Below, piece by piece: positions 1,700 through 19,735 of a DNA stretch of 64,000 nt. Location: assembly GCA_031418775.1 (NCBI GenBank), contig JANOJN010000079.1, positions 2,320-66,319 on the forward strand, written 5' to 3'. The notes under the pieces are model-generated. The model was not told the DNA's origin. It ran no database searches and saw only the letters and a list, made by a program, of their open reading frames with translations. How positions within the stretch are numbered: position 1 is the first letter of the stretch; each line of letters begins with the position of its first letter. Position numbers and translations under genes: made by a program. This stretch comes from Acidimicrobiia bacterium (GTDB lineage: Bacteria; Actinomycetota; Acidimicrobiia; Acidimicrobiales; JANYDT01).

Positions 1700-1864
1700 G
1701 ACAGCGACCCGACGGTCGAGTCGGGAAGGCAGAACCGATACCCGATCGATTCCTGGCTCGATCGGGAGGCTCGGCCCCTCGCGCCGGAGGCCCCTTCGAC
1801 CGAATGTGCGACCGTTACGATGGCCGATCGGCGCGGCCGAGGGGCCCCCAAAGGACGAGTTGCG

Positions 1865-3520: not shown

Positions 3521-6283
3521 TCAGGAGTGATGGGCTACGGATCGGCGACGCAGTGCCTCGATCGACTCCGCAACAATACCCTCCGGGTCATCTTCGTGAT
3601 CCGCCAGCGAGAGCTGCTCCAAAAGCCGAGTGAGCCCGTCGCTTTCCCGTGAGAGCGCGAGAAGCGCGCAGGCACGCAGCCACGGGCGTCTCCAGACTCG
3701 CTGCTGATCGAGCGCGAGGTCCGTCAACTGCTCGGCCGGGGTGAGGGCGGACGGGCTGTCGATCTTGACGAGGCGGCCCAGGCGTTCAGCGGTGCTGAGG
3801 TCGGGCTCGAGAATCACGATCGCGGGACGGGAACGGGGGACGAGCGCGACCTCGAGCCACTCGACCGCGACCGCGTGCTGACGCCGGTCGCTCTGGGCGA
3901 ACTGGAACGAAACACGGTCGATGGCCTCTCGCCCGTGATGCAGCGAGAGCGCGCTCATCACGCGGGCGCGGGTGTCGGTCAGCTCATCCACGAGCGCGCG
4001 GCGAAGCTCGGAACAGTCGGCATGCTCGAGCACGGCGAGCGCACGGAGAATCCTCAGCGCGTGGTAGATCTCGGCGACAACCACATCACCGCTGACGGTG
4101 GCGGCCATCGACGAATCGTCCTGAACGAGGTCGTTGAGTGCGTTCACAATCGACAACCCGACATCTCGGTTCCGATGATTGACGTGCCCGACGAGCATCC
4201 CGGCCGCTTCGCTCGTGCCGATGTCTCGTGCCGCGCGAACAGCGAGCTCTTGACGGCGCGGCTCTCCCAAAACCCGAGCGGTCAGGCATCGATCAACCAT
4301 CGCCACACCGCGGTCCCCGGCTCGCACGATCGCATCGACGGCCGCAGACGCCGTCTCTCGACCGTCGAGCAGAGCGACAACAGCCGCTTCGAGGTGCTCA
4401 TGGTCGGGCCAGGCGACTGCGCCGAGAGCCGCAGCGGCTACCGCTGGATCTGTGTCGGCGAGGAGCGCCTCGATCATCGAGCCCGACTTCACCGCCAGCA
4501 CGGGGGCCGCGGTGAGCATCTCGGCTGCCTCCACGCGTCGGTCGGCGTCGGGATCCCGCGCCCTCGAAGCAATGATGTCATCAAGAACTCGATGGGCTTG
4601 GCAGTTCGAAAGCCCGCCGGCCGCTTTCGCTGCGGCCAGTCGGACACCGCGGTCGGCGTCGAGGAGGAGCGCGGCCACGCGTTCAGCATCGCTGTCCGTC
4701 GCGCCCGCCGAGATCGACCGTAGTGCCGCGGCCCGCACGTCCGCCCGCGGGTCGTGCAGCATGGTACGGGCGAGACCAACAGCGCTCGACGGGTCGGCCT
4801 CGGCGAGCAATTCCAGCGCCATCGCCGTGGCACCCTCGCGTTCGGACGCAACCATGCGCTCGAGGTGCTCGACGAACGTAGGGTGACCGGACCGTTGCAG
4901 CGCGGCCAGGCCGAGGCGGACGTCTCGTCGGTCGTCGCTCGCCAGCAACGCTTCGACGACGACGAGGGTTTCGGCGTCGTCGACGACGATTTCGCTCGGA
5001 TCGAGTTGACGGTGCCGAAGGGTGTCGAGGAGGTTGACCCCGTATCCTCGGTAGACACCAAGTGCGCATACGATCCAGAGTGCGAGGGTTACCACGACGA
5101 TCACCGGAATGGTGAGTCCCTTCGTCCCGACTGTCGCTCGGACGACGAGGAGTATGACCCCGGAGACACCGATGGCCAGAGGAACGGCAAGGCTTTCCAC
5201 CACGGCTTGCGATGCCGTTCTCTGCGCCGAGGGCACAGCCTGATACGCCGCGCCGACCGACGTGCGGGTCGTGCCGTCGGCGAGGACCATGTCGGACACC
5301 CGAGTGGCGACGACGAGGAGGAACACCACCGTCGACGCCGAACCCTGCACGACCGCCCCGGCAATCGACGCACCGACGAGCGAGAGCACGAACGCAGGAT
5401 TGGCGAAGAGGCCCAACCGAAGTCCGAAGCGTCCGATCAACAGACCCGCGAGGAGGATCAGGAAGATGATGTCGGCACCGTACGCGATCGCACTGAATCG
5501 GCCGACGAACGTCGCCAGATCTGTGCTGTTCGTGTAGCGGCGACCGGCGTGGTCGTACACCAGGAAGTCGAGCAGCGTGCTCTCCACCGCGGACAGCATC
5601 TGGAACACCATGATCAGGACGACGTAGCGATTGCGGAGCAGCGAGCGGAGCGAGGGCCGTGTCGTCGTCTTGTCGGATTCGTCCTCCACCTCGAGCGTCA
5701 GCAACTCTGCGGCGAAGGCCTTCGTCGTGAGCAGTACCAACGCAACGACGACAAGCGCCGAGGCGGCAGCTGTCGACAGAAGATGCTCCGCCCCACCGAG
5801 CGCCTCGAGGAGAGGCGCTCCGGAGAGGCCGCCGACGGCGAAGCCTGCGGCGAAGCCGGCGATCACCCGGGGATACATCACCTTCAACGAGCGCACATCG
5901 AGGAGGGCCCCGGCCTGTCCAACGATGAACATGAAGCCGACGGGAATGGTGATGGGGAGGACGACGAGCAGCGCGAAGGACATCCACGCGGCGTTGGCCA
6001 GCCAGAGACTCAACCACGCAATGGTGAGGGTGATGCTTGCGGCGATCATCACCCGCATCGCAACGGTGGCGAGCGGTCGGCGACGCAGCGCCCGCGCCAG
6101 CAGCACGCTCGCCACCGCGCCGACGCCGGCGGAAAGGATGTAGGTGACCGGAAGCAGTCCCGACCCGTAGGTCTGGAGGAAGATCGTGTTGGCGGGGACG
6201 GTGATCCATGCGATGACCAGACCGAGCGCCGCCGCCTGCGCAGTGAGCAGGGCGACCCGTCGGCGCGTCGTCGACGGCGTCAC
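3521..6283 (-). CDS. Multi-pass transporter-like membrane domain (MFS/Npt-like) fused to a long HEAT-repeat domain
   Basis: 920 aa. The N-terminal ~430 aa is a series of hydrophobic helices. The C-terminal half has Ala/Asp/Arg-rich helical repeats of HEAT/PBS-lyase type (HDPRADVRAAALRSIS, LDADRGVRLAAAKAAGG, ADTDPAVAAAALGAVA). The GTG start overlaps the upstream stop (GTGA). Confidence 0.7.
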   Translation of the reverse strand: MTPSTTRRRVALLTAQAAALGLVIAWITVPANTIFLQTYGSGLLPVTYILSAGVGAVASVLLARALRRRPLATVAMRVMIAASITLTIAWLSLWLANAAWMSFALLVVLPITIPVGFMFIVGQAGALLDVRSLKVMYPRVIAGFAAGFAVGGLSGAPLLEALGGAEHLLSTAAASALVVVALVLLTTKAFAAELLTLEVEDESDKTTTRPSLRSLLRNRYVVLIMVFQMLSAVESTLLDFLVYDHAGRRYTNSTDLATFVGRFSAIAYGADIIFLILLAGLLIGRFGLRLGLFANPAFVLSLVGASIAGAVVQGSASTVVFLLVVATRVSDMVLADGTTRTSVGAAYQAVPSAQRTASQAVVESLAVPLAIGVSGVILLVVRATVGTKGLTIPVIVVVTLALWIVCALGVYRGYGVNLLDTLRHRQLDPSEIVVDDAETLVVVEALLASDDRRDVRLGLAALQRSGHPTFVEHLERMVASEREGATAMALELLAEADPSSAVGLARTMLHDPRADVRAAALRSISAGATDSDAERVAALLLDADRGVRLAAAKAAGGLSNCQAHRVLDDIIASRARDPDADRRVEAAEMLTAAPVLAVKSGSMIEALLADTDPAVAAAALGAVAWPDHEHLEAAVVALLDGRETASAAVDAIVRAGDRGVAMVDRCLTARVLGEPRRQELAVRAARDIGTSEAAGMLVGHVNHRNRDVGLSIVNALNDLVQDDSSMAATVSGDVVVAEIYHALRILRALAVLEHADCSELRRALVDELTDTRARVMSALSLHHGREAIDRVSFQFAQSDRRQHAVAVEWLEVALVPRSRPAIVILEPDLSTAERLGRLVKIDSPSALTPAEQLTDLALDQQRVWRRPWLRACALLALSRESDGLTRLLEQLSLADHEDDPEGIVAESIEALRRRSVAHHS

Positions 6284-6924
6284 GTTTGCACTCGCTTGGC
6301 ATCCTGGTCAGCAAGGTCCTGCAATCGCCGGACCAGTTCAGCAATCACGGCGCGAGCGATGCCGGGGCGCTCGTCCAACAGTTCTTCGAAGGGTTTGCGG
6401 CGAAGTCGCAGTAACAAGCACGGCTCGAGCGCAGTGACCGTTGCGGAGCGTGCGGCCAACGCCAGCACGGCCAACTCACCGACGACGTCGCCGGGCCTGC
6501 GGTCAACAAGTGCGCGATCGCCCACGTGTACGCGTAGCGCCCCCTCCACGACGACATACAGCCAGTCTTCGATCGCGCCCCGCTCCATGACGACCTCGCC
6601 GGTCGCAACTCGGAGCTCCTCGACCACGCGAGCTACGGCCACGAGGGTGTGCCCGGGGACGGCGGCGAACATGGCGACGCGTTGGAGCGCAGCAACGCGC
6701 TCGATGGTCAAGAGCTCGTCTGATGAGCTCACGAACACTCCTGAAACACGCTGGTGAATGTCGGCGAAACGAGGCCGAAACGAACGCACGATTTCGGGCC
6801 GTGATCCGGTGGTGATCGGCGACGTGTTCGTGCTGGATCGACCTGCCGTGCAAACATCGGCATACCTCGGAGTGGAGCAAACAGTGTGGCAGACGGACGC
6901 GTCAACGCCCACAACATCACTCAC
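6280..6924 (-). CDS. Cyclic nucleotide-binding (CAP effector domain) protein
   Basis: cNMP-binding fold with phosphate-binding cassette PGDVVGELAVLALAARSATVTAL. GTGA overlaps at both ends (6921-6924 and 6280-6283). The ~70-aa N-terminal extension is unverified, so the true start may be internal. Confidence 0.75.
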   Translation of the reverse strand: MSDVVGVDASVCHTVCSTPRYADVCTAGRSSTNTSPITTGSRPEIVRSFRPRFADIHQRVSGVFVSSSDELLTIERVAALQRVAMFAAVPGHTLVAVARVVEELRVATGEVVMERGAIEDWLYVVVEGALRVHVGDRALVDRRPGDVVGELAVLALAARSATVTALEPCLLLRLRRKPFEELLDERPGIARAVIAELVRRLQDLADQDAKRVQT

Positions 6925-7859
6925 GCCATCAGGTACACGTCTCCTTCGCTGCCGACCACGACATCGATGTCGAGCGTGGACATCTCCTTCGCGATCCGGT
7001 CGAGTTCATCGTCAACACGGTCGGGATCGTGATGAAAGAGCACGAGTTTGCGTACGCCTGCTTGTCGGGCCAACGTGACGGCGTAGTCGATGGTCGAGTG
7101 ACCGAAGTGGCGTACCGCAGGAAACTCTTCCACCGTGTGCTGGGCATCGTGGAGGAGGAGATCGGCGCCTCGGCACAGCTCAATGGCAGCGTCGTGAACG
7201 ACACCGAGCCCGTCGTTGCCATCGCCCCACTCCAACGGCCCGTGGTCGGGCATGTAGACGACCGTGGCACCGTCATGTCGGACGCGGTAGCCGAACGTGC
7301 GGCCTCCCTTGTGCGGAATCTCCATCGCGAGCACGTCGAAGCCCTCGATCTTGTGCCACCCGGTTTCGAGCGAGTGGAACGACCACGCGCCGCGGAGGCC
7401 CGACGGACTGATCGGGAAGTGCGGTGGACTCATCATCTGGGCAAGAACAGCTTCCGCGTCGCCCTGCGCCGGGAGATAGAGGTCGACGCGGGCGTCGGGT
7501 CGGTCACCGGCGCGGAAGAATGGCAACCCGTAGACGTGATCCCAATGGAGATGCGAAAGCAGGATGGAGCCGTCGAACGGTTGGCCGTTGAGCACCTCGG
7601 TGAGGCGAGTGAGGCCGCTGCCCGCATCGAGGACGAGCGTGGGGGTGGAATTGCCACGCGCGATGGACACGCATGACGTGTTCCCGCCGTAGCGCACCTG
7701 ATCGGGCCCGGCCACGATGCGGGAGCCGCGGACGCCATGGAGTTGCAACCGCACGAGGGATCCCTTCGAGGTGAGGACCCTCGATCTTGGTCGATCGGGC
7801 GGCAGCTCCCGCGCCACAGACAGCAGCGACATTCCCGCATGACCCAGTGTGGGTAGCAT
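6921..7859 (-). CDS. Metallo-beta-lactamase-fold hydrolase (possible cyclic-nucleotide phosphodiesterase)
   Basis: HxHxDH motif (LLSHLHWDHVYGLPFF) plus downstream His/Asp ligand motifs (MPDHGP, LLLHDAQH, LFHHDP). ATG at 7859 is only 6 bp from the divergent cyclase start. An alternative GTG at 7754 is preceded by AAGGGA. Confidence 0.8.
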   Translation of the reverse strand: MLPTLGHAGMSLLSVARELPPDRPRSRVLTSKGSLVRLQLHGVRGSRIVAGPDQVRYGGNTSCVSIARGNSTPTLVLDAGSGLTRLTEVLNGQPFDGSILLSHLHWDHVYGLPFFRAGDRPDARVDLYLPAQGDAEAVLAQMMSPPHFPISPSGLRGAWSFHSLETGWHKIEGFDVLAMEIPHKGGRTFGYRVRHDGATVVYMPDHGPLEWGDGNDGLGVVHDAAIELCRGADLLLHDAQHTVEEFPAVRHFGHSTIDYAVTLARQAGVRKLVLFHHDPDRVDDELDRIAKEMSTLDIDVVVGSEGDVYLMA

Positions 7860-7865
7860 CGCCCA

Positions 7866-10800
7866 ATGGCGGATCGTCACCGTACTGACCATCCCCAGGC
7901 GTACATCCCCGGAGATCGGAGGCAAGCGCTCGCCGCAGGTGTCGAGATGCCCGACCGCGTCTCCGGGTCCGGGTTGTTCGCCGATGTGAGCGGTTTTACC
8001 GCGCTGACCGAGGCGCTGGCGACGGAACTGGGACCGCAGCGAGGTGTTGAAGAGCTGACCGCAGTGCTGGACCTCGTGTTCCAAGCCGTCATCGACGACA
8101 TCACCGACTTCGGCGGCCACGTCATCTACTTCAGCGGTGACGCGGTGACCTGTTGGCTCGATGGGGACGACGGGAGTCGGGCGGCGGCCGCTGCGCTCGC
8201 GGTCCAGCGGACGATGGACCGTGTAGGCCGCGTCTCGACACCAGGTGGTCGCGTCGTGGAACTCGGCATCAAGGTCGCGATTGCCGTCGGCCCGGCCCGT
8301 CGTTTCGTGGTCGGAGACCCCAACGTCCAGCTGATCGACGTGCTCGCGGGGGCGATCGTCGACGAGTTGGCCGATGCCGAGCAACTCGCCGAACGCGGCG
8401 AGATCGTGCTCGGCCCCTCGGCCGTCGCCGCGCTCGGCGAGCTCGCGGTCATTTCACGCGTTCCCCGAAAGCAGTCCACGGCCACGATCCTCGAGGGGCT
8501 CACGGACGTCGTGGTCCCCACCGAGCGTCCCCCCGAGCCAGTGGTGGACGAGGCCCTGGTACGCCCCTGGCTTCTGCCGGTCGTGCACGAACGCCTCAGC
8601 ACCGGTCGGGGTGAGTTCCTCACGGAACTCCGCTCGGCCTTCCCGATGTTCGTCCGTTTCGGCGGAATCGACGTCGACGCAGATGACGGGCCGAGCGAGC
8701 TCGACACGTTCGTGTCTCGGGCACAGGAAGTCCTCACAAGCTTCGGGGGGAACGTCCTTCAACTCATCCTCGGTGATAAGGGCGCGTACCTCTACGGCGT
8801 GTTCGGCTCGCCGGTCACCTACGGCGATGACGCGTCACGCGCCGCCGCCGCCGCCCTCGAACTTCGATCGGTCGCGGCCGACACCGCAGCGCGCGACCTC
8901 CAGATCGGCATCGGCCATGGACGGCTGCGTAGCGGAACCTACGGCCACTCGCTTCGCCGCACCTTCACGTGCCTCGGTGACGCGGTGAACCTCTCGGCCC
9001 GGTTGATGGCCGGCGCGGCGCCGGGAACGATTCGCGTAACCGATGACGTTCGACGGGAAGCCGGAGACCGCTTCCTCTGGGCGTCGGTCGGCACGTTTCC
9101 CGTCAAGGGCCGAGTCGAGCCGGTGCAGGTCTGGACCATCGAGGGGACCTCGTTCGCCACTCGGGAACGGGAGGTCCGCTACACGCTGCCTCTCGTCGGA
9201 CGCGATCAGGAGATGGCCGCGGTCGCCGAGGCCGCCGACGCTGTCCGGTCCGGCAGCGGACGCGTTGTGGCCATCTCCGCGGAAGCAGGTCGCGGGAAGT
9301 CCCGGCTCATCGCCGAAATCGTCCGCAAGCTTCGAGCTGACGGCATGCCGGTGGCGTTCGGTGAGGCTTCGGTCGTGGGCTCGACGGGTAGCTATGTGGT
9401 GTGGCGCGAGGTCGTCCACACGTTGCTCGGCATCGACGAGACGGGAAGCGACAGCGCCCGAATACGCGCGCTGCGCCGGTCACTCGCCGGCATCGGTCGG
9501 AGCCAGGCGCGCCGTGCGCCGCTGCTCGGGCCCCTGCTCGGCATCGATGTCCCCGACACCGATGTGACACGCGCCTTCGACGCCAAGCTCCGCAAGTCCT
9601 CCCTCGAGTCCCTCATCCTCGATGTGCTCGCCGAACGCACGCAGGCGTCGCCTCTGACCATCGTGCTCGAGGACTGTCATCGGATCGACGAACTCTCGCG
9701 CGATCTGCTCGAGGTCCTTGTTCGTGGTGCCGAGTCGCTTCCCGTCCTGTTCCTCCTGAACTACCGCCCCACCGGCAGTGCCGGGGCAGGCCTTGGTCTC
9801 GAATCGCTTCCGTTCTTCGCGGAGTTCGAGCTTTCCGAGCTCGGACCCGAGGCCGCTCGTACCGCTGCCGTGGCGAAGATCCACCAGCTGTACGGCGAGA
9901 GCGTCCGCCCGTCGATCACTCTGATCGACGCGGTCGTCACGAGAGCCGAGGGCAATCCGTTCTATCTGGAGCAGATTCTCGACTTCCTCCACGGCCGGGG
10001 ATTGGATCCCACCCGACCCGAACAGCTCGATGCCATCGATCTTCCGGCGAGCCTCCACAGTCTCCTCCTGAGTCGAATCGACACCCTCGACGAGGGGCCA
10101 CGCCGAACGGTGAAAGTTGCGAGCGTCCTCGGGCGCCGCTTCGAGGCTCCGACGGTCCGTCGCGTCTACCCGGACCTCGGTTCCGACACCGATGTGATCA
10201 CCCACCTGCGAGTCGGACGGTCGGCTGACCTCTTGGTGTCCGACGAGGACGAGCGGAGTTCCTGGCTGTTCCGGCACGTGATCACCCGTGAAGTGGCCTA
10301 TCAGAGCCTTCCCCACACCCTGCGGGTTGATCTGCACGAGCGGGCGGCCCTCGACCTGGAGGAGCGGGGTCCCGAGGTCGTAGAGAGCGAGCTCGACCTG
10401 GTCACGCACCACTGGTGCAGCAGCGACCGGCGGGACAAGCAGATCGAGTACCTGGGTCGAGCCGGCGAATCCGCCCAGGCCCGATACGCCAATGATGCCG
10501 CGGCTGACTACTTCGATCGGCTGGCGACGCTCGTCGACGGCGCAACCCGTGCCGATGTGCTCCTCCGGCTCGGGAAGGTGCTCGAACTGACCGGAGCGTG
10601 GGATCGCGCGCGGGCTGCGGGGACGGAGGCCACACTCCTGGCCCGTGACGCAGGCGACCCCACGCTCGAGGCATGGTGCGAGGTCTCACTGGCCGAGGTG
10701 GCCCGCAAACAGGCCCGGTTCGACGATGCCACCGACCACCTCGGCCGGGCCGTCGACTGCTTCGACCGGACCGACGACGATGCCGGTCGCGGCAAAGTGC

Positions 10801-11561
10801 TCCACCTTGCCGGCACGGTTGCCGCCCAACGAGGCGACAACGCGCTCGCACGAACGAACTACGAAGCAAGCCTCGAGATCCGCAATCGCTTGGACGATCG
10901 CGGGGCGGCTGCGTCGGTGTTGTCGAACCTCGGCGTGGTCGCGGAGTACGAGGGTGATCTCGCCGGATCGCGCCGATTCCACGAGAAAGCGCTCGGGCTC
11001 CGACGCGAACTGGGCGATCGCTGGGCGCTGGCGGTGTCGCACACGAACCTTGGCATGATCGATATCATCGAGGGGCACGCCGCCGAGGCCAAAGCGTCGT
11101 TCGAGGAGGCGATGCGCCTCAACCAAGAGGTCGGTGATCGGTGGATGGTCGCCATCAGTCACCACAACCTGGCGAACGCGTGCCGAGCAGTCGGTGAGCT
11201 CGACGGTGCCCGCGCCGCGTACCGCGAGGCGGTCGAGGCGTTCGTGACCTATGACGATCAATGGGCCTTGGCGTTCTTGTTCGAAGACGTGGCGTTGCTC
11301 GCCCTTCGGCTCGGTGAACCAATGTCGGCTTGGGAGCTGCTCGGCGCGGCTGATGCATGCCGTAAGTCGGTTGGGTCCCCCCGGCCGGCGGCGATGGAGA
11401 GCGACATGTTGTCCCAACTTGCCGCGGCATCGTCTGACGACGAGGCCAATCCGGACGGCGGAGTGAACGCCAGGGGTCGGGGTGCGGCGGCAACCCGGGA
11501 CGACATGGTCAACGTGGTCATGCAGCTGTGCGACGGCGCCGTCAGTCGTCTCGAGCGCTGA
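7866..11561 (+). CDS. Class III adenylate/guanylate cyclase (two tandem CHD-like domains) - STAND P-loop NTPase - TPR protein
   Basis: 1231 aa. CHD1 has LFADVSGFTALTE and FSGDAVTCW. CHD2 has GDKGAYLYGVFG and CLGDAVNLSARLM. Walker A is SAEAGRGKSRL. The C-terminal third is TPR-like (NLGVVAEYEGDLAGSRRFHEKAL, HTNLGMIDIIEGH, HHNLANACRAVGE). Confidence 0.85.
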   Translation: MADRHRTDHPQAYIPGDRRQALAAGVEMPDRVSGSGLFADVSGFTALTEALATELGPQRGVEELTAVLDLVFQAVIDDITDFGGHVIYFSGDAVTCWLDGDDGSRAAAAALAVQRTMDRVGRVSTPGGRVVELGIKVAIAVGPARRFVVGDPNVQLIDVLAGAIVDELADAEQLAERGEIVLGPSAVAALGELAVISRVPRKQSTATILEGLTDVVVPTERPPEPVVDEALVRPWLLPVVHERLSTGRGEFLTELRSAFPMFVRFGGIDVDADDGPSELDTFVSRAQEVLTSFGGNVLQLILGDKGAYLYGVFGSPVTYGDDASRAAAAALELRSVAADTAARDLQIGIGHGRLRSGTYGHSLRRTFTCLGDAVNLSARLMAGAAPGTIRVTDDVRREAGDRFLWASVGTFPVKGRVEPVQVWTIEGTSFATREREVRYTLPLVGRDQEMAAVAEAADAVRSGSGRVVAISAEAGRGKSRLIAEIVRKLRADGMPVAFGEASVVGSTGSYVVWREVVHTLLGIDETGSDSARIRALRRSLAGIGRSQARRAPLLGPLLGIDVPDTDVTRAFDAKLRKSSLESLILDVLAERTQASPLTIVLEDCHRIDELSRDLLEVLVRGAESLPVLFLLNYRPTGSAGAGLGLESLPFFAEFELSELGPEAARTAAVAKIHQLYGESVRPSITLIDAVVTRAEGNPFYLEQILDFLHGRGLDPTRPEQLDAIDLPASLHSLLLSRIDTLDEGPRRTVKVASVLGRRFEAPTVRRVYPDLGSDTDVITHLRVGRSADLLVSDEDERSSWLFRHVITREVAYQSLPHTLRVDLHERAALDLEERGPEVVESELDLVTHHWCSSDRRDKQIEYLGRAGESAQARYANDAAADYFDRLATLVDGATRADVLLRLGKVLELTGAWDRARAAGTEATLLARDAGDPTLEAWCEVSLAEVARKQARFDDATDHLGRAVDCFDRTDDDAGRGKVLHLAGTVAAQRGDNALARTNYEASLEIRNRLDDRGAAASVLSNLGVVAEYEGDLAGSRRFHEKALGLRRELGDRWALAVSHTNLGMIDIIEGHAAEAKASFEEAMRLNQEVGDRWMVAISHHNLANACRAVGELDGARAAYREAVEAFVTYDDQWALAFLFEDVALLALRLGEPMSAWELLGAADACRKSVGSPRPAAMESDMLSQLAAASSDDEANPDGGVNARGRGAAATRDDMVNVVMQLCDGAVSRLER

Positions 11562-13746: not shown

Positions 13747-14781
13747 TCAGCGCCCGTGGGTGTTCTCGCGGCGGTGTCCTTCGGCGAGCCGGGAGAGCCG
13801 CACGGTGTCGATGTCATTGGCCGGCACGGCGGCCACCTTGCACTCGGTTACGGCGCGCAGTGTCGCTGTTCGGTGTCCACCTTCCAGGAGGCCACGTTCG
13901 CCCAAGACAGCGCCCGGACCCAACTCGGCAATCTTCTCGCCGTCGACCTCGACAACGAGGACGCCGTTGAGAAGCAGGAAGAGTTCGTCGCTGCACGAAC
14001 CCTGCTCGACGAGGGCGCCGCCTGCTCTGATTCGGCGAATCTCGGGTCGCTGGCTTCCCCGCATGATCGCGCTCTGGAGCTCTCGCTCAAGGGCTGATTC
14101 GACCGCGGTGACCAATGTCGGCGAGTCCTCGTCACCCCATGGCGTGCGGTGACCGAACGACTCACTCATCCATTTCTTGTATTCCGCGACGCTGCTCTTC
14201 GCGACAAGCGAACCCGAGTCGTCGAACAGCCAATGACGCGGAAAACCAGACGCCCCGGCGAATGTCGCCTCGTGGGTACCGTCGGTTCGGATGATGAGCT
14301 CGAGCGTCGTCCACACGATTGGGGCGTGGTACTGGACGAATGGCGGATGTTTGACTGCCCGGGGCATCGGCGCTCCGGTTCGACCCCCGACGGTCTGCGT
14401 GAAGCGGACGTAGTCGGCGCCGATCTCCGGTTCGCTTCGACGATCGTCGAGTCTGATGGCCGGAACGGTGATCGATCCAACGGCGAGGCCTACCGTCGTT
14501 GCTCCCATGACGCCGCCGCCGCTGTAGCCGGCGTTGACGATCCGATGGGAGTCGTCGACCTCGATGAAGGCGCGGAGATGGTTCGCGAAACGGAACCCGT
14601 CGGCGATGCGGAGCTCCGCGAGAGTCGCGGAGATGTCGGCGCCCAGCGAGATCGGCGGCGGCGGATCGTGATGGGCCATCTTCATGCGAGTCGCGATCTT
14701 CCCCATTCCTTCGAGGAGGTCCGACGGGATCCACGAGACGGTGGCGACGCTGCGTTCGTATCGAGTGGAGGTAGTGGACAT
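13747..14781 (-). CDS. Protein with an uncharacterised ~230-aa N-terminal domain fused to a C-terminal cyclic nucleotide-binding domain
   Basis: The C-terminus has a cNMP-binding cassette (GPGAVLGERGLLEGGHRTATLRAV). The N-terminal domain (VSWIPSDLLEGMGK...YHAPIVWTTLELIIRTDG...FPRHWLFDD) matches nothing I recognise. Confidence 0.75.
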   Translation of the reverse strand: MSTTSTRYERSVATVSWIPSDLLEGMGKIATRMKMAHHDPPPPISLGADISATLAELRIADGFRFANHLRAFIEVDDSHRIVNAGYSGGGVMGATTVGLAVGSITVPAIRLDDRRSEPEIGADYVRFTQTVGGRTGAPMPRAVKHPPFVQYHAPIVWTTLELIIRTDGTHEATFAGASGFPRHWLFDDSGSLVAKSSVAEYKKWMSESFGHRTPWGDEDSPTLVTAVESALERELQSAIMRGSQRPEIRRIRAGGALVEQGSCSDELFLLLNGVLVVEVDGEKIAELGPGAVLGERGLLEGGHRTATLRAVTECKVAAVPANDIDTVRLSRLAEGHRRENTHGR

Positions 14782-14970
14782 GGCTTATCGTGAGCCGATG
14801 AAGAGGGGAGCGAGAAGGGCGGAGCCCGGCGCTTCCCCGGTGTGGCTGGCACACCCCGGACCGGTGGGGCGCACGCCCTGGTATTGAGCGCCGCCTTCCC
14901 TGTTCAATGAATGCGTGAACAACGGTCGGTTGCTCCTCGTGCGCGGCCCGGGCACGCACGGTCGGACAAC

Positions 14971-17439
14971 GTGAGAGCGGTCGTCTACCGGTACCGGTCG
15001 ACGCTCCGATCCAATTGGCGTTCCTGGACGGTCCTCGCCCTGGCGGTCGGTCTCGCATTGAGCTTCGCTCTGGCAGCCGCAGCGGATGCCCGGCGCACCG
15101 ACACCGCATTGCCCCGGGCACTCGCTTCCGGGCGTTCAGCAGATGTGTTGGTGAGCGGTGATCAATCAGCGATGGGCCGCTCGGCAGCGCTTTCCTACCT
15201 CGACGAGATCGAGCACCTTCCCGGTGTCGAGCGATCGACGCGGATCGGCGGCGTGTACCTCGTTGAGCTCAACGAAGACGGCAGTGAGGGCACGCGCCTG
15301 TCCTTCGGTTCTGCCGTCGGGAAGCTGATCTCATCGCCGGGACCTGAGGGCGTGGAGACGCTTCGGCTGCTGAAGGGCCGGTTGCCCGCGACCGATCGAC
15401 CGGAGGAGGTGATCGTGAATCCGGAACTATCGCGCGTCACCGGGTGGAAGATCGGCGACCGGGTGACATCGTTGCGGTTGGTTCGCCTGGAGGGCTTCGG
15501 CAAAGACGGCAACGCCGACCCGAAGACGGGTGAGCCGCTCGAGCTCACGATCGTCGGCGTGGGACGCCTCCCGAATGAGCTGCTCGACTCCGCGTCAAGC
15601 CGCAAGCCGCAGGTGTATCTGTTCCCTGCGTTTGCGGCGGCCCACCGCGACTCGACCTACTACATCTCGTCGGCGTTGAAGGTCTCCGATGTCGACTCGA
15701 AGATTGTGGAGCTCCGCTCGCAGGTCGAGAAGCTCGTCGACCGCTATCCCGGTGCACAGGTCCTCTTCTCGGTGACGAACGACGCTCGGGTGGCTGTCCA
15801 GAACGCGTTGCGACCGCAGGTCACGACGATCTGGCTACTGGGCGCCGTCCTGTTTTTCGCTGGTCTGTTGTTGGGCGCGCAGGCGATCGGCCGCCAGATC
15901 CTCTCCCACAATCGTGATGCGCCTGCCCTTCGGGCCCTCGGCATGGCACCTCGCGATCTCGGTGCTCTCGCCATGCTGCACGGAATCACGATCGCCGTTG
16001 CCGCGTCGATCACCGCCCTCGTGGTCGCGTGGTCCTCGAGTGCGTTCACACCGTTCGGTTCGACACGAGCTGTCGAGCCGTCACCCGGACTCAGGTTCGA
16101 CGGCGCTGTACTCGGACTGGGAGTGCTCGTGATCACCGCGACACTTGCCGTCGCCTCGTGGTTGTCGGCGATGCGCGTCACCAGGTTCTCCGTTCCCTCA
16201 CCCCGTGGAGCACAGGCTTTCGGCGGGCAAGGTCGGCCATCGCGTTTCGTGAGCTTGTTGGCGTGGGCCGGCCTGCCTCCGACCGCAGTGACGGGCTCAC
16301 GTTTCGCACTTCAGCCCGGCATCGGGCGGGATGCGACCCCGGCTCGCAGCGTCCTTTCCAGCATCGCGCTTGCGGTCGCCGTTGTCGCGGCCGCGGTCTC
16401 GTTTGCTTCAAACCTGAACCACCTCCTCGGCACGCCGAGCAACTACGGCTGGGACTGGGACGTCGGCGTCGGGAACGTCTTTGGCCCGATCCTCGACGAC
16501 GCGGTGGAGGCAATTCGCGCCCGACCCGAGGTCGCTGCGATCGCCGCGTTCTCCTACGGCAACGTTCGCATCGACGGAACGTCGATCGCTGCTGTCGGGT
16601 TCGATCAGCTCGATGGAACCGTCTTCCCGACAATGATCGACGGCCGGATACCGCAGGGGGAACGCGACATCGTTCTCGGCCCTCTCAGCATGAAGAAGCT
16701 CGGCCGCTCCATCGGCGACCGGGTCGACGTGGAAACCGGCCACGGGATGCGCACGATGACGATCGTGGGCACCGCGACCTTTCCGGCGATCGGGAACACC
16801 CGTACCAGCAACACCGGTCTCGGCACCGGCGCCGCGACCGTCGCTTCCGTGTTTCCGCCCTCTTCGGACCCCTCGGAGGGCCGGTTCAATGGCGTGTTCC
16901 TCCGGATCGATCCGACACTCGATCGGGCAACAGCAACGGAATCACTTCGGAAATTCTTCATCGAGCAGGGTTGCACCGATTCGGGCTGTTTCTTCACCGA
17001 CGGGAAGCCCGCCGCCCTGAACGGCTACGAATCGCTGGGAGCGGTGTGGCTGCCGTTCGCCGCCGCAGTTGGCGTGTTGTTCGCGATCTCCCTCGCCCAC
17101 GGCATCGTCACCACGACGAACGCCAGACGGCGCGATCTGGCCATCATGGCCGCACTCGGTCTGACCCGGCGTCAGGCAGGTCGCGTTGTGCTCTGGCAGG
17201 CGGCGACGACCATCGGGGCTGCGCTCACCGTCGGTGTACCTCTCGGCATCTTCAGCGCCAACGTGCTGTGGGGAATCTTCTGCGGGCGTCTCGGTCTGCG
17301 ACGCAGTCCGAGCATCCCCGTTCTGCGGTTGATGGTCCTCTCGTCATTGGCGATGGTGAGCGCACTTGCGGTCGGTCTCGCATTCGTTCCTTCGACCCGC
17401 AAGGCCACCGCGGCCGGTCTTTCCGTGACCGCCGAGTGA
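14971..17439 (+). CDS. FtsX/MacB-type ABC transporter permease (duplicated 4-TM module with large extracytoplasmic domains)
   Basis: ~820 aa with two clusters of TM helices separated by long soluble segments. Sits with a MacB/LolD-type ATPase gene in the same operon. Start uncertain (GTG 14971, or 14911). Confidence 0.75.
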   Translation: MRAVVYRYRSTLRSNWRSWTVLALAVGLALSFALAAAADARRTDTALPRALASGRSADVLVSGDQSAMGRSAALSYLDEIEHLPGVERSTRIGGVYLVELNEDGSEGTRLSFGSAVGKLISSPGPEGVETLRLLKGRLPATDRPEEVIVNPELSRVTGWKIGDRVTSLRLVRLEGFGKDGNADPKTGEPLELTIVGVGRLPNELLDSASSRKPQVYLFPAFAAAHRDSTYYISSALKVSDVDSKIVELRSQVEKLVDRYPGAQVLFSVTNDARVAVQNALRPQVTTIWLLGAVLFFAGLLLGAQAIGRQILSHNRDAPALRALGMAPRDLGALAMLHGITIAVAASITALVVAWSSSAFTPFGSTRAVEPSPGLRFDGAVLGLGVLVITATLAVASWLSAMRVTRFSVPSPRGAQAFGGQGRPSRFVSLLAWAGLPPTAVTGSRFALQPGIGRDATPARSVLSSIALAVAVVAAAVSFASNLNHLLGTPSNYGWDWDVGVGNVFGPILDDAVEAIRARPEVAAIAAFSYGNVRIDGTSIAAVGFDQLDGTVFPTMIDGRIPQGERDIVLGPLSMKKLGRSIGDRVDVETGHGMRTMTIVGTATFPAIGNTRTSNTGLGTGAATVASVFPPSSDPSEGRFNGVFLRIDPTLDRATATESLRKFFIEQGCTDSGCFFTDGKPAALNGYESLGAVWLPFAAAVGVLFAISLAHGIVTTTNARRRDLAIMAALGLTRRQAGRVVLWQAATTIGAALTVGVPLGIFSANVLWGIFCGRLGLRRSPSIPVLRLMVLSSLAMVSALAVGLAFVPSTRKATAAGLSVTAE

Positions 17440-17515
17440 CGGGTGTGCTGGCACCACCGAAGGACACGGGCTCACGCCCTGTGCGTGAGTCCGATCGAGG
17501 AGTTGAATCAACCAC

Positions 17516-18940
17516 ATGGGAGCAATCACGGTGTTCATCGCCGACGACAGCGTCTTCATCCGTGAGGGAGTGAAGGCCATGTTGTCTCGACAGGCCGATA
17601 TCGAGATCGTCGGCATCGCGGAGGACTACGACGGACTCATCAGCGGAGCGGAGGCCACTGCCCCGAACGTCGTGGTGAGTGATATCCGGATGCCGCCCAA
17701 CTTCCATCGGGAAGGCATCGAGGCCTGCAAGATCATCCGCAAGGCGCACCCCGGTACCGGCGTTGTCATCCTCAGTCAGTATGACGATCCGGACTACGCG
17801 ATCGCGTTGCTTTCCGAAGGTGCCAGCGGTTACGGCTACCTGCTGAAGGATCGCATCGCCGAGGGCGACCAGTTGGCTCGCGCGATTCGGGAGGTTGCCT
17901 CTGGCGGATCGATGCTCGATCCCGTCATCGTCAGTGCGCTGATGAGTCCGGTTCGGCGAACCGGCGGGTTGGACGCCAGCGACGACGCGTTGCTCGAGAT
18001 GGTGGCAGAAGGTAAGCCGATCAAGGCGATCGCGATCGCCACGAAGTCGACGCCGGGCGCCGTGGAGACGAGAGTGGAGAACCTGTTTCTGCGGCTCGCC
18101 GAAGGTGTGTCGGCCGGTACCGCGGGTTCGCTCGACCGTTTGAAGCGGCTCCACGTGGCGATTGTGTCGCGCGAGGAGCAGGGCGAGTCGCTTTCGCGTC
18201 TCCTGCCGACGGGGGTCGCCGACCGTATTCGTGCCCGAGGTGCGCATGCCGGCGACACCGAGGAGCTCAACGTGACCGTTCTGATGAGCGACATCCGCGG
18301 GTACACGACCATCAGTGAACATACTGATCCGTCGAACCTTGCTCAGCAGCTCAACCGTCACCGCTCGGAGATGAACAAAGCGATTCTTTCGGCCGGTGGA
18401 ACGGTCATGCAATACGTCGGTGACGCCGTGATGGCCGTCTTCGGAGCCCCGGAGCCGTGCACCGATCACGCCGATCGCGCCCTGGTCGCCGCACACGCGA
18501 TGCACGCCGCCCAGGACGCGGTGAACAACAGCTGGATTGCCCAAGGTCTCGAACCCTTTCCCCTCGGCATCGGGCTTTCGACAGGCGACGTCGCCGCCGC
18601 CCTGCTCGGCTCGGAAGAACGGCTCGAGTACACCGTCGTCGGCGACGCCGTGAACCTCTGCCAGCGGCTCCAGCAGTTCGCCATCGACGGCGAGACCGTC
18701 GTCAGCGATCCGACCTGGGAGCAATTCACCCAGAAGCCGGAGGCAGAGGATCTCGGTCCGCAACTGGTGAAGGGACGCTCCACGCCCGTGCGACCACGCA
18801 AGATCGCGTCACGCAACCAACCCCGCCAGCAGTCGCCGGACAGCAGTCCCGAATCGTCCGATTCGGCCGGCCGGCCGGCGCCTGGCCCAATCGACAAGAA
18901 TGCGGAACGTCCGCTCGTTTCCCAGGAGGCAATGCCGTGA
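17516..18940 (+). CDS. Response regulator: NarL-type REC + degenerate LuxR HTH + class III nucleotidyl cyclase domain
   Basis: REC domain (FIADDSVFIREG...VVVSDIRMPP...YLLKD). HTH remnant (LLEMVAEGKPIKAIAIATKSTPGAVETRVENLFLRL). CHD domain (VTVLMSDIRGYT, YVGDAVMAVFG, VVGDAVNLCQRLQ). Confidence 0.85.
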   Translation: MGAITVFIADDSVFIREGVKAMLSRQADIEIVGIAEDYDGLISGAEATAPNVVVSDIRMPPNFHREGIEACKIIRKAHPGTGVVILSQYDDPDYAIALLSEGASGYGYLLKDRIAEGDQLARAIREVASGGSMLDPVIVSALMSPVRRTGGLDASDDALLEMVAEGKPIKAIAIATKSTPGAVETRVENLFLRLAEGVSAGTAGSLDRLKRLHVAIVSREEQGESLSRLLPTGVADRIRARGAHAGDTEELNVTVLMSDIRGYTTISEHTDPSNLAQQLNRHRSEMNKAILSAGGTVMQYVGDAVMAVFGAPEPCTDHADRALVAAHAMHAAQDAVNNSWIAQGLEPFPLGIGLSTGDVAAALLGSEERLEYTVVGDAVNLCQRLQQFAIDGETVVSDPTWEQFTQKPEAEDLGPQLVKGRSTPVRPRKIASRNQPRQQSPDSSPESSDSAGRPAPGPIDKNAERPLVSQEAMP

Positions 18941-19698
18941 GCATCGACACGCTTTCCGATCAGAGCGTCACTCCAGGAGGAGAAGCGGCCGTGACCTCGG
19001 GCGTCGATCTCGTGGTCGATGTCCGGCAGGTGTTTCGAACGTTCGAGGCCGACATGGCTCCGGTCCGAGCCCTACGCGGTGCCGACCTGTCCGTTTCGCG
19101 TGGCGAGTTCGTTGCTGTCATGGGTCCGTCGGGGTGCGGGAAGTCGACCATGCTCAACATCATCGCCGGACTCGATATCGCCGACGACGGGGAGGTGAGC
19201 GTCGCCGGACAGCGACTCGACGGCAAGACCGAGAGCGATCTCGCGATCATGCGCCGTCGACACATCGGAATCGTGTTCCAGTTCTTCAACCTCCTCGAAG
19301 GAATGACGGCGCTGGAGAACGTGCTCATGCCGGCCCTCATCGCCGGGCGCAAACGAAAGGCGGCCGAGACCAGGGCCCGCGACCTGCTCGACCTCCTGGG
19401 CATCGGCGACAAGGCCAAACAGGCGCCCGCCTCTCTGTCGGGCGGTCAGCGTCAGCGGTTGGCCATTGCGCGCGCTCTTGCCAACGAGCCGACGCTCCTG
19501 CTGGCCGACGAGCCCACGGGCGCTCTTGACTCGGCCGGAGGCGACGAGGTTCTCGAACTCTTCACCCGTTTGCATCGCAACGGCCAGACGATTCTTCTGG
19601 TCACCCACGACCAACCGGTCGCCGACGCAGCCCAACGGATTGTCCGAATGAAAGATGGTCGCGTCATCGATGACGGGCGCGGCGCGCCGGTGGCGTGA
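18937..19698 (+). CDS. ABC transporter ATP-binding protein (MacB/LolD-like)
   Basis: Walker A GPSGCGKST, signature LSGGQRQR, Walker B LLLADEPT. GTG start at 18937 overlaps the regulator stop (GTGA). CAGGAGG lies 8 nt upstream. Confidence 0.9.
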   Translation: MSIDTLSDQSVTPGGEAAVTSGVDLVVDVRQVFRTFEADMAPVRALRGADLSVSRGEFVAVMGPSGCGKSTMLNIIAGLDIADDGEVSVAGQRLDGKTESDLAIMRRRHIGIVFQFFNLLEGMTALENVLMPALIAGRKRKAAETRARDLLDLLGIGDKAKQAPASLSGGQRQRLAIARALANEPTLLLADEPTGALDSAGGDEVLELFTRLHRNGQTILLVTHDQPVADAAQRIVRMKDGRVIDDGRGAPVA

Positions 19699-19735
19699 CG
19701 CACCGCTCGAAGGCACAACGAACGAACGAGGGCAC

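Follow-up and report, generated by a model that had tools for sequence, protein, structure and literature searches.

The locus described here raises the question of whether genes for the synthesis, degradation, sensing and membrane response of one cyclic-nucleotide signal form a single unit. A sequence-only reading had proposed a writer, an eraser, a reader and an effector in one place. In the window, by which we mean the whole 64,000-nt stretch of an Acidimicrobiia contig that was analysed, all four genes are present, but the MBL-fold gene stands upstream of the other two minus-strand genes in 8 of 80 related loci, and an orthologous divergent cyclase adjoins that pair in only 4 of 80. As an explanation of the whole we favour, with somewhat more confidence than doubt, a two-gene core for a cNMP-gated transporter to which cAMP genes were added, giving a composite island. 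This reading draws on gene models, domains, folds, synteny, fusions and conserved ligand-binding and catalytic residues. The features are as follows.

3521..6283, minus strand: NTT-HEAT protein, 920 aa (Pfam TLC and HEAT_2, AF2, Foldseek)
6280..6732, minus strand: cNBD150, stand-alone cyclic-nucleotide-binding protein, 150 aa (PF00027, RBS, homologue gene calls)
6733..6920, minus strand: non-coding spacer, 188 nt, from the MBL stop to the cNBD150 start (alignments, nhmmer)
6921..7754, minus strand: MBL-fold phosphodiesterase-like protein (MBL), 277 aa (PF12706, NF041851, AF2, Foldseek)
7755..7865, no strand: divergent MBL/cyclase intergenic region, 111 bp (starts fixed by homologue N-termini)
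7866..11561, plus strand: soluble-adenylyl-cyclase-like protein, 1231 aa (Pfam, PDB ADCY10 4oya, CHD profile)
13747..14781, minus strand: 344-aa protein with a C-terminal cNBD (PF00027, E 1.7e-14)
14911..21865, plus strand: second signalling cluster of permease, RR-cyclase and histidine kinase (Pfam), comprising the next three genes
14911..17439, plus strand: FtsX/MacB-type permease (Pfam)
17516..18940, plus strand: response-regulator adenylyl cyclase, or RR-cyclase (Pfam; 65% identical to that of locus L082)
19655..21865, plus strand: GAF-HisKA_3 histidine kinase (Pfam)

The mechanical ORF list of the window holds frames at 3521-6283, 6280-6924 and 6921-8384 on the minus strand and at 7866-11561 on the plus strand, and Pfam, profile and structure matches were found for them; the sequence-only reading is right about all four genes and their domains and wrong on two details. 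Between the cNBD150 stop and the NTT-HEAT start, the GTGA overlap at 6280-6283 is genuine, and the tight junction recurs among relatives (median estimated gap 5 nt, with 4-nt overlaps frequent). The other proposed GTGA overlap, at 6921-6924, arises solely because the longest ORF was called, the cNBD150 start being GTG 6732. Homologues of the 214-aa cNBD ORF align only from residue ~65-79, an AGGAG RBS at 6742-6738 precedes GTG 6732, public gene calls for close homologues give 150 aa, and the relative L002 has extra bases just past the MBL stop that are missing from four other sequences; therefore a 188-nt non-coding stretch parts MBL from cNBD150. Of the three-gene operon suggested earlier, the cNBD/NTT-HEAT part stands on overlap and synteny, but MBL is not joined to cNBD150 by an overlap. 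The longest-ORF start of MBL had been placed at 7859, which is an internal ATG, as the mechanical longest ORF starts at TTG 8384. The start guessed as an alternative, GTG 7754 with an AAGGGA RBS, is where 22 of 24 aligned homologues begin, and it thus leaves a 111-bp divergent region at 7755-7865, in which no sigma-70-like consensus was found.

The 188-nt spacer probably serves the cNBD150/NTT-HEAT operon as its promoter, operator or 5' leader. About 110 nt of it are nearly invariant in alignments of the five closest genomes, and its nhmmer profile matches only the window and loci L001-L004. It has no Rfam match, covariation is absent from the alignment of close relatives, and the fold z-score is -0.16.

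The solid core of the locus is the translationally coupled two-gene operon of cNBD150 and NTT-HEAT. The 150-aa protein matches cNMP_binding PF00027 (E 4.6e-16; 8e-16 in another search), and the GELAVL...RSATV cassette noted earlier is upheld by Pfam and by its residues: the phosphate-binding cassette GEL..R[SA]A[ST] is kept in 74 of 75 orthologues, the exception being a truncated fragment. In 75 of 80 loci NTT-HEAT is immediately preceded by a cNBD gene on its own strand; of the remaining five, three are cut or show the downstream variant and two are apparently frameshifted or fused. Synteny holds for no fewer than 75 of the 78 loci that could be assessed. These span Acidimicrobiia, Thermoleophilia/Gaiellaceae and Chloroflexota, and for this pair the neighbourhood check on the proposed gene set thus gave synteny across three classes and phyla.

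The cNBD/NTT-HEAT kind has been published: Major, Embley & Williams (2017, Genome Biol Evol; PMC5381601) reported the association in a set with one actinobacterial and two Chloroflexi sequences. Their proteins have the architecture seen in the window, with PBS-lyase-type HEAT repeats after an NTT/TLC membrane domain, and are paired with a PF00027 cNBD, encoded in an adjacent gene or fused. The separate cNBD gene is 3' of NTT-HEAT in the published cases, whereas in the window, as in 75 or more related loci, it is 5' and coupled. The window lineage also adds adjoining MBL phosphodiesterase-like and sAC-like cyclase genes to what the published cases contain. The transporter, HEAT and cNMP-binding fusions mentioned in the sequence-only reading appear in the same publication and were found again here: among the best 150 representatives, the 15 longest relatives (>=1019 aa) include 13 with one or two C-terminal cNBDs. 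cNBD150 aligns full-length to these fused domains with up to 47% identity (E 3e-33), against only ~E 1e-7 for an unrelated control cNBD from the same window. The clade of the window protein is a large one, with 3341 representatives at 50% identity reaching E<=1e-30.

The 920-aa protein had been described as ~12 helices joined to ~480 aa of HEAT repeats, and Pfam, AF2 and Foldseek agree with this. Its NTT/TLC-like membrane domain has an MFS fold of ~12 helices (aa 1-~425, nt ~5009-6283), and its cytoplasmic part is a HEAT/alphaRep-type solenoid of ~480 aa (aa ~437-919, nt ~3527-4975), in which a C-terminal W-x3-W-x3-CA motif around aa 862 is conserved. Pfam matches are TLC (E 8e-5, 22.0 bits vs a cutoff of 21) and HEAT_2; the PDB sequence match is 9j3n (E 6.5e-5), alphaRep profile matches reach E 5e-41, and the AF2 model has a pLDDT of 81.6. 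With Foldseek, the membrane part matched AtNTT1 (9j3m, TMt 0.65, target-length-normalised), C. pneumoniae NTT1 and 9j3n/9j3o, NTT1 structures being the best matches among membrane proteins, and the solenoid matched PP2A-A, alphaRep solenoids and importin; the membrane domain is thus a transporter fold, as had been supposed. AtNTT1 and the Chlamydia/Rickettsia Npt/Tlc proteins (9j3m, 9j3n) share this 12-helix MFS-type fold at target-normalised TM-scores of 0.55-0.65, whereas sequence similarity to the characterised ATP/ADP translocases is marginal (18.7 bits against a 387-bit cutoff for TIGR00769), so that a nucleotide substrate is a guess. The window protein also differs from them in carrying a HEAT solenoid of 480 aa. 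The organism lives free in soil or water, so theft of host ATP is not the rationale. An exact copy of the protein is present in NCBI (P0001).

The divergent gene encodes the two cyclase-homology domains (CHDs), P-loop STAND NTPase and TPRs that had been assigned to it, as confirmed by Pfam (Guanylate_cyc, AAA_16, TPR_12), by a CHD profile built for this analysis (7974-8465 and 8643-9140) and by PDB ADCY10 4oya (E 3.6e-27, both domains aligned). C1 spans aa ~30-188 with metal-binding D40 and D92, and C2 aa ~223-430 with K305, N375 and R379 and a degenerate metal site; the STAND/AAA_16 NTPase follows at aa 442-629 (Walker A GRGKS, 475-479), then TPRs at aa ~880-1170. The cyclase resembles the mammalian-type soluble adenylyl cyclase (C1-C2-STAND-TPR): ADCY10 and bacterial sAC-like cyclases have the same tandem C1-C2 domains, the same one competent active site, to which C1 gives the metal Asp residues and C2 Lys/Asn/Arg, and likewise a P-loop NTPase and TPRs towards the C-terminus. 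Where sAC has its bicarbonate-site Lys95, the window protein has Tyr88, which makes activation by bicarbonate doubtful.

The MBL-fold hydrolase with HLHWDH is also upheld, by PF12706 (Lactamase_B_2, E 2e-19) and by a SHLHWDH metal motif at aa 67-73. The likeness that had been drawn to the HxHLDH of class II phosphodiesterases is a loose one; the typical class II family is not matched, but the motif is the [T/S]HXHXDH of the atypical class II enzymes Rv1339, C. glutamicum CpdA and B. subtilis YhfI (Thomson et al. 2022, PMC9293780), which share the PF12706 fold. In Foldseek searches with the AF2 model (pLDDT 85), RNase Z ranked first, with YhfI (6kns) among the top matches and the PhnP family and Apyc1 also found, and the modelled protein falls in this phosphodiesterase branch. 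In NCBIfam only NF041851, the model for a cyclic nucleotide-degrading phosphodiesterase, is matched over the full length, with a score of 49 bits vs a 400-bit cutoff; MBL scores far under the curated cutoffs of every named family and is no equivalog of the Rv1339-type model. It belongs to a large actinobacterial family without characterised members, separate from the Rv1339 type, with ~60% identity across Actinomycetota and usually operonic with a cNBD protein. A cNBD gene ends <=150 bp directly upstream of the family gene in 32 of 66 loci, and cNBD domains are 6-fold denser within 2.5 kb of family members than farther away (2.3 vs 0.39 per 10 kb). By architecture the bacterial cNBD-then-MBL pair, on separate polypeptides, may be likened to a split form of Dictyostelium GbpA/GbpB, class IIb enzymes whose MBL catalytic domain is fused to two cNBDs and activated through them by cNMP (PMC11988041). 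From its family's genomic association with cNBD and cyclase genes, MBL is a putative cyclic-nucleotide phosphodiesterase.

That MBL is instead RNase Z, PhnP or another phosphodiesterase-type enzyme, acting for example in tRNA 3' processing or as a 2',3'-cyclic or phosphoribosyl cyclic phosphodiesterase, we consider unlikely. RNase Z gives the best single NCBIfam score and the top PDB sequence match besides its first Foldseek rank, but the RNase Z sequence matches are confined to the last ~80 residues (83 aa in NCBIfam) and score far under the cutoff (54 vs 293 bits), and MBL, at 277 aa, is shorter than RNase Z chains (~306-320 aa). JGI labels its homologues 'phosphoribosyl 1,2-cyclic phosphodiesterase', yet the PhnP model scores 24 against 272 bits. 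In Nocardioides a NUDIX gene precedes the family gene and the neighbourhood lacks a cNBD; against this stands the strong, repeated operonic link of the family to cNBD proteins and cyclases. A somewhat less doubtful possibility, though still an improbable one, is that neither MBL nor the sAC-like cyclase has a functional tie to the genuine cNBD150/NTT-HEAT pair beside them. The usual neighbours of the MBL family in 80 metagenome loci are a 333-aa cNBD protein (36) and an RR-cyclase (22), with NTT-HEAT in none. Their window orthologues lie at 13.7-18.9 kb, 6-14 kb away, on the expected strands. The 344-aa protein, whose N-terminal domain matches no Pfam family, is 53% identical over 335 aa to L082:4988-5989 and, judged by sequence, is the orthologue of the 333-aa protein normally directly upstream of the MBL family; the permease, RR-cyclase and kinase set is also the one that usually flanks that family elsewhere, as in L082-L084. 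MBL would then work with the 344-aa cNBD protein, the RR-cyclase and the GAF kinase of this other cluster, from which an insertion of the cyclase-STAND-TPR and glycosyltransferase genes split it, so that its place beside cNBD150 would be a by-product of rearrangement. The 188-nt spacer and the rarity of MBL upstream of the pair fit an incidental link to the transporter. However, the MBL-cNBD150-NTT-HEAT order recurs with MBL only 49-62% identical (L008, L013, L018, L021) and is therefore older than one recent rearrangement, and one diffusible messenger could be shared by all three activities.

Far less credible is a Pycsar-like anti-phage system, in which cNMP made on infection would turn a split cNBD150/membrane effector to killing or arresting the cell. 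In PADLOC, domain-level matches tie cNBD150 with PycTIR-type effectors at E 1e-21, and the cyclase with PycC at E 1e-10, and STAND NTPase and TPR architecture, which the cyclase bears, occurs in other defence sensors. These matches, however, span only generic cNBD and class III cyclase folds; PADLOC found no TIR or Pycsar transmembrane effector domain. The pair is vertically conserved across three classes and phyla, and a cyclase is found <=5 kb away in no more than 18 of 80 loci. The window cyclase is most similar to sAC and has an adenine-specifying Lys305, and a phosphodiesterase beside a defence signal would be self-defeating.

In the composite-island reading, MBL and the orthologous cyclase are lineage-specific additions to the pair. 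Because the usual neighbours of the MBL family differ and their orthologues lie at 13.7-18.9 kb, the island consists of two modules and an inserted cyclase; pair, MBL, cyclase and second cluster would make up a ~18-kb composite cAMP-signalling island and not one four-part operon. cNBD150 would bind cAMP and dock on the HEAT solenoid, to whose C-terminus the same cNBD is covalently fused in relatives, and docking would make transport by NTT-HEAT, probably of a nucleotide, respond to the intracellular cyclic-nucleotide level. MBL may hydrolyse cNMP, and the sAC-like cyclase would be the second cAMP gene beside the pair in this Acidimicrobiia lineage. Around the module, extra cNBD genes are enriched 10-30 times and CHDs ~2 times at <=2.5 kb relative to farther out.

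The four open reading frames named in the sequence-only reading are present in the window (ORF calling), where G+C content is 64-68% across the first 16 kb. An HMM check agreed with the domains proposed for their products: TLC and HEAT_2; cNMP_binding; Lactamase_B_2; and Guanylate_cyc with AAA_16 and several TPR families. The genes are, in this order:

3521-6283, minus strand: NTT-HEAT, 920-aa membrane protein with HEAT repeats
6280-6732, minus strand: cNBD150, 150-aa cyclic-nucleotide-binding protein
6921-7754, minus strand: MBL, 277-aa MBL-fold phosphodiesterase-like protein
7866-11561, plus strand: 1231-aa cyclase resembling soluble adenylyl cyclase (sAC)

The GTGA overlap at 6280-6283, between the cNBD stop and the NTT-HEAT start, is genuine; the second overlap that had been proposed, at 6921-6924, is an artefact, and 188 nt separate the MBL stop from the cNBD start. 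In the 214-aa longest ORF, the part matched by orthologues of the cNBD protein begins only at about residue 65-79 (tblastn of relatives), an AGGAG lies at 6742-6738, five bases 5' of GTG 6732, and the closest homologues are annotated at 150 aa in public gene calls; the gene was therefore set to 6280-6732. The longest MBL ORF called mechanically extends to TTG 8384. The alternative start suggested earlier, GTG 7754 after AAGGGA, is the first residue for 22 of 24 aligned homologues, and with this start the proposed 111-bp divergent region (7755-7865) is supported.

A Pfam search of the 920-aa product of 3521-6283 (minus strand) detected an NTT/TLC membrane domain at the N-terminus (PF03219, 22.0 bits against a cutoff of 21), and the closest solved structure by sequence was the Chlamydia pneumoniae ATP/ADP translocase 9j3n (E 6.5e-5). 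The canonical ATP/ADP antiporter model (TC 2.A.12, TIGR00769) gave 18.7 bits against a cutoff of 387.2, and the likeness to characterised NTTs is marginal. HEAT_2 was below cutoff in the single sequence (24.4 bits against 27.7, E 3.5e-5); the family profile matched alphaRep designs at E 5e-41, and homologues carry precomputed PF13646/PF02985 annotations, which identify the C-terminal part as HEAT repeats. The AlphaFold2 model (24 family members, mean pLDDT 81.6) shows some 12 long helices as far as residue ~425 and, after them, a solenoid of helical repeats. Foldseek searches against the PDB matched the membrane half to AtNTT1 9j3m (target-normalised TM-score 0.65) and to C. pneumoniae NTT1 9j3n and 9j3o, and the remainder to the PP2A-A, importin-alpha and alphaRep solenoids. 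Given the NTT1 matches, the objection that the membrane domain, described earlier as transporter-like, might have some other fold falls away. The shared architecture, together with fused relatives recovered inside one profile search, suggests membership in the NTT-HEAT family of Major, Embley and Williams (2017). Near the C-terminus of the solenoid, at residues ~859-873, D859, W864, W868, C872 and A873 are invariant among 24 diverse members; this motif, RVWRRPWLRACAL in the window, may be a surface on which the cNBD subunit docks.

cNBD150 matched PF00027 (cNMP_binding) with 59 bits against a gathering threshold of 27.5 (E 8e-16 with the longest ORF) and has a phosphate-binding cassette with Glu and Arg (GELAVL at aa 85, RSATV at aa 95). 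Its orthologues keep the GEL..R[SA]A[ST] cassette in 74 of 75 cases, the remaining one being a truncated fragment. Synteny was assessed in 80 genomic loci from MAGs, retrieved by the NTT-HEAT family profile and falling into three groups: Acidimicrobiia (Ilumatobacteraceae, Microthrixaceae), Thermoleophilia (Gaiellaceae) and Chloroflexota (Caldilineaceae, Limnocylindrales, Promineifilaceae). A same-strand small cNBD gene lies directly 5' of NTT-HEAT in 75 of them; the PF00027 partner of this family occurs both as an adjacent gene and within fused relatives. The distance from cNBD stop to transporter start has an estimated median of 5 nt (range -19 to +60), with an exact 4-nt overlap at many junctions. 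Two of the other five loci end at a contig edge, one has a downstream cNBD gene, and in two the cNBD ORF enters the transporter, by either frameshift or fusion. A second cNBD gene occurs within 2.5 kb in 35 of the 80 loci (1.2 per 10 kb versus 0.04-0.12 farther out); cyclase-homology domains (CHDs), counted irrespective of type, show an enrichment of about twofold inside 2.5 kb and lie within 5 kb in 18. Many Chloroflexota loci (L036, L038, L039, L042, L046, L056, L058) have the second cNBD gene just 3' of NTT-HEAT on the opposite strand, and NTT-HEAT is thus bracketed by two cNBD genes. Locus L018 carries MBL, cNBD, NTT-HEAT, cNBD and a double-CHD cyclase on a single strand.

Single polypeptides combining transporter, cNMP-binding and HEAT modules, to which the sequence-only reading referred, do exist and have been published. 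The NTT-HEAT family was described as monophyletic by Major, Embley and Williams (2017), with three-domain NTT-HEAT-cNBD fusions in cyanobacteria, deltaproteobacteria, Bacilli and oomycetes, in some cases a separate cNBD gene a few nucleotides 3' of NTT-HEAT, and the suggestion that cAMP might tune transport; their survey also placed NTT-HEAT proteins in cyanobacteria, Chlamydia trachomatis and oomycete pathogens (PMC5381601). The fusions were found again when all 1.84 billion cluster representatives (clusters at 50% identity) were scanned with HMMER, a search that returned 3341 NTT-HEAT proteins at E<=1e-30. Among the best 150 of these 3341, 15 are at least 1019 aa long and 13 of the 15 have one or two C-terminal cNBDs. 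Residues 7-139 of cNBD150 align with the fused cNBDs at up to 47% identity (E 3e-33), while a control, the cNBD of an unrelated 344-aa protein of the window, reached only about E 1e-7; it follows that cNBD150, although a separate protein, corresponds specifically to the fused domain. No fusion occurred among the best 120 homologues of NTT-HEAT or the best 120 of cNBD150, the fusions being confined to more distant NTT-HEAT representatives of the profile search. Since none of the 120 closest homologues is fused, the split state is stable in the clade of the window pair. In the window the cNBD gene comes first, opposite to the order in the published adjacent pairs and in the fusions. In loci L035 (9164-10528) and L054 (9028-12382) the upstream cNBD ORF continues into the transporter ORF, and in the database protein P0398 (879 aa) residues 76-134, on the N-terminal side of the MFS domain, form a partial cNBD; these may be fusions with the cNBD N-terminal to NTT, or else reflect frameshifts in long-read MAGs.

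The MBL protein matched PF12706 (Lactamase_B_2) at E about 2e-19 to 3e-19. Its SHLHWDH at aa 67-73 fits [T/S]HXHXDH, the motif proposed for the atypical class II phosphodiesterases (PDEs) Rv1339, CpdA and YhfI (PMC9293780), and both fold and motif are thus those of that class. The likeness to class II PDEs that had been noticed from sequence holds for the motif of the atypical enzymes but not for the typical ones, whose family PF02112 (HxHLDH) gave no match in MBL even at E<=1. The only full-length NCBIfam match was NF041851, cyclic nucleotide-degrading phosphodiesterase (49.1 bits against 400; residues 1-267 onto 1-244 of 253), and neither MBL nor any of 24 family members scanned reached the equivalog level. 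The AF2 model (pLDDT 85, pTM 0.88) found its nearest structures by Foldseek in short RNase Z, YhfI 6kns (target-normalised TM-score 0.77), BA1088, PhnP-family enzymes and Apyc1, which places it in the phosphodiesterase branch of the fold. As judged from sequence and predicted structure, MBL appears to match no named family. The family itself is large, with 7978 of 8000 scored candidates at E<=1e-5 and about 60% identity across Actinomycetota, including Nocardioides.

Of three long contigs examined, two have the MBL gene directly after a 333-aa cNBD protein and divergent from a response regulator (RR) adenylyl cyclase. The context set was extended to 84 loci, 80 from a metagenome scan and 4 from the long-contig set, in which the density of cNBD domains is 2.3 per 10 kb at distances up to 2.5 kb from the MBL gene and 0.39 per 10 kb beyond. 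In the 66 loci with enough upstream sequence, a cNBD lies within 2.5 kb in 46, and a same-strand cNBD gene ends at most 150 bp upstream of MBL in 32. The 80 MBL-family loci contain the 333-aa cNBD type in 36, as a habitual and apparently translationally coupled upstream partner, the RR-cyclase in 22 and NTT-HEAT in none. In Dictyostelium, GbpA and GbpB each join an MBL-type PDE to two cNBDs, through which the enzyme is activated (PMC11988041). This precedent and the cNBD-rich context make a putative cNMP phosphodiesterase role of MBL well motivated, as an argument from association only. Since its members habitually share an operon with a cNBD protein and an RR-cyclase, the family is a strong candidate for a cNMP phosphodiesterase so far overlooked in bacteria; no description of the MBL and 333-aa cNBD operon in Actinobacteria was found in the literature searched.

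The first 445 residues of the cyclase aligned with human ADCY10 (E 3.6e-27) over both C1 (30-188) and C2 (223-389), giving a tandem with complementary catalytic residues. C1 retains the metal-binding aspartates D40 and D92; C2 retains the adenine-specifying K305 and the Asn/Arg pair N375 and R379, and its own metal site is degenerate or lost (FVRFGG). Tyr88 occupies the position of Lys95, the bicarbonate-site lysine of sAC; the bicarbonate-binding Lys is accordingly missing. C-terminal to the catalytic domains are a P-loop (GRGKS, 475-479), AAA_16 and TPRs. The protein has a sAC-like C1-C2-STAND-TPR architecture, from which cAMP is the predicted product.

Beyond the cyclase, the window holds a glycosyltransferase gene and a second cluster:

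11588-13027, minus strand: GT2 glycosyltransferase, between the cyclase and the 344-aa cNBD gene
13747-14781, minus strand: 344-aa protein with a C-terminal cNBD and a conserved N-terminal domain of ~240 aa without Pfam match
14911-17439, plus strand: FtsX/MacB permease
17516-18940, plus strand: RR adenylyl cyclase
19655-21865, plus strand: GAF-HisKA_3 kinase

Identity is 53% between the 344-aa protein and the partner normally found upstream of the MBL family, and 65% between the RR-cyclase and the family's usual divergent neighbour. MBL has therefore apparently been split from its canonical partners by ~6 kb, comprising the GT2 gene and the cyclase-STAND-TPR gene, and now stands beside cNBD150. 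The 344-aa protein, an orthologue of the 333-aa type, could be a regulatory subunit of the putative PDE. The permease, RR-cyclase and kinase set (14911-21865) is also found beside MBL homologues on unrelated contigs (L082-L085 and others), a recurrence that suggests conservation, in Actinomycetota, of a cAMP module under two-component control. A writer, an eraser, a reader and a membrane effector had been proposed to lie in one place; the stretch between 3.5 and 21.9 kb is more aptly termed a composite cAMP island than a four-gene unit. A GH1 beta-glucosidase-family gene (1820-3412, plus strand) converges on the NTT-HEAT end, as it does in L003, and the GT2 gene was not detected among the loci listed, including L002 and L013 (tblastn E<=1e-8, >40% query coverage); gene content on the far side of the cyclase is therefore variable.

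We consider it probable that cNBD150 is a detachable cAMP-sensing subunit of the NTT-HEAT carrier, on which it would act through the HEAT solenoid, and that this lineage has added, locally, MBL and the sAC-like cyclase, which would be able to lower and to raise, respectively, that same messenger. The starting points are the observed gene models, folds, conserved ligand and catalytic residues, synteny and fusions; from them we infer the identity of the ligand, physical contact between cNBD150 and HEAT, transport and its substrate, and the PDE activity of MBL. The main rival accepts the pair and regards the position of MBL and the cyclase as incidental, a possibility to be taken seriously, if not one we favour. 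The three minus-strand genes had been presented as one operon; synteny in relatives is general for the pair but not for MBL, which lies upstream of the pair in only 8 of the 80 NTT-HEAT loci (L001-L004 at 87-95% identity; L008, L013, L018 and L021 at 49-62%), and an orthologous divergent cyclase is present in only four (L001-L003, L013).

An RNase Z- or PhnP-like role of MBL is less likely, and we think it improbable. RNase Z models slightly outscore NF041851, yet they cover only the last ~83 residues (TIGR02651, 53.8 against 292.95 bits), and PhnP TIGR03307 gave 24.3 against 272.25 bits. Pycsar-like defence is less likely still, to the point of being hardly credible: PADLOC matched only the generic cNBD and class III cyclase fold, and cNBD150 bears no TIR or transmembrane killing domain. 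The same PADLOC search for Pycsar or other defence systems returned generic domain-level matches only.

A bolder extension of the subunit model, offered tentatively and rather unlikely to hold in all its parts, is that the pair forms a second-messenger-gated nucleotide transporter of free-living bacteria and that MBL is a cNMP PDE under in-trans cNBD control. cAMP-loaded cNBD150 would clamp the HEAT solenoid and thereby open or close the NTT-type carrier, whose putative cargo would be adenine nucleotides or cAMP itself, and MBL would be the first member of a bacterial cNMP PDE family, a split counterpart of GbpA/GbpB. If true, this would provide a function for NTT-HEAT proteins as a whole, the orphans of Chlamydia trachomatis, cyanobacteria and oomycetes among them.

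Because NTT-HEAT with a partner cNBD has already been described, the pair is not categorically new. What appears new is a large Actinomycetota/Chloroflexota clade with an upstream, translationally coupled cNBD gene, the lineage-specific neighbourhood of a putative PDE and a sAC-like cyclase, and an MBL family habitually operonic with cNBD proteins. NTT-HEAT proteins are widespread, as the 3341 clusters indicate, and in genetic terms this clade sets out the regulator cleanly, as a separate, translationally coupled 150-aa cNBD orthologous to the domain fused in other lineages. With a candidate cAMP source and a candidate sink adjoining the pair in this lineage, the hypothesis of cAMP-regulated nucleotide transport becomes directly testable, and the locus gives compact access both to a widely distributed orphan family of transporters and to what may be a new family of bacterial PDEs.

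The intergenic regions were also searched for regulatory sequences. CRP-type boxes (TGTGA-N6-TCACA, <=2 mismatches) were absent from both and fewer across the entire window than in shuffled sequence, and a sigma-70 promoter scan of 6200-8000 returned nothing. A structured RNA or riboswitch in the 188-nt spacer (6733-6920, minus strand) was rejected for want of evidence, with no Rfam match, no covariation and a fold z-score of -0.16. About 110 nt of this spacer are nearly invariant in the window and L001-L004, where it is apparently better conserved than the flanking coding DNA; the element, found only in five near-identical genomes, may be a promoter, operator or leader.
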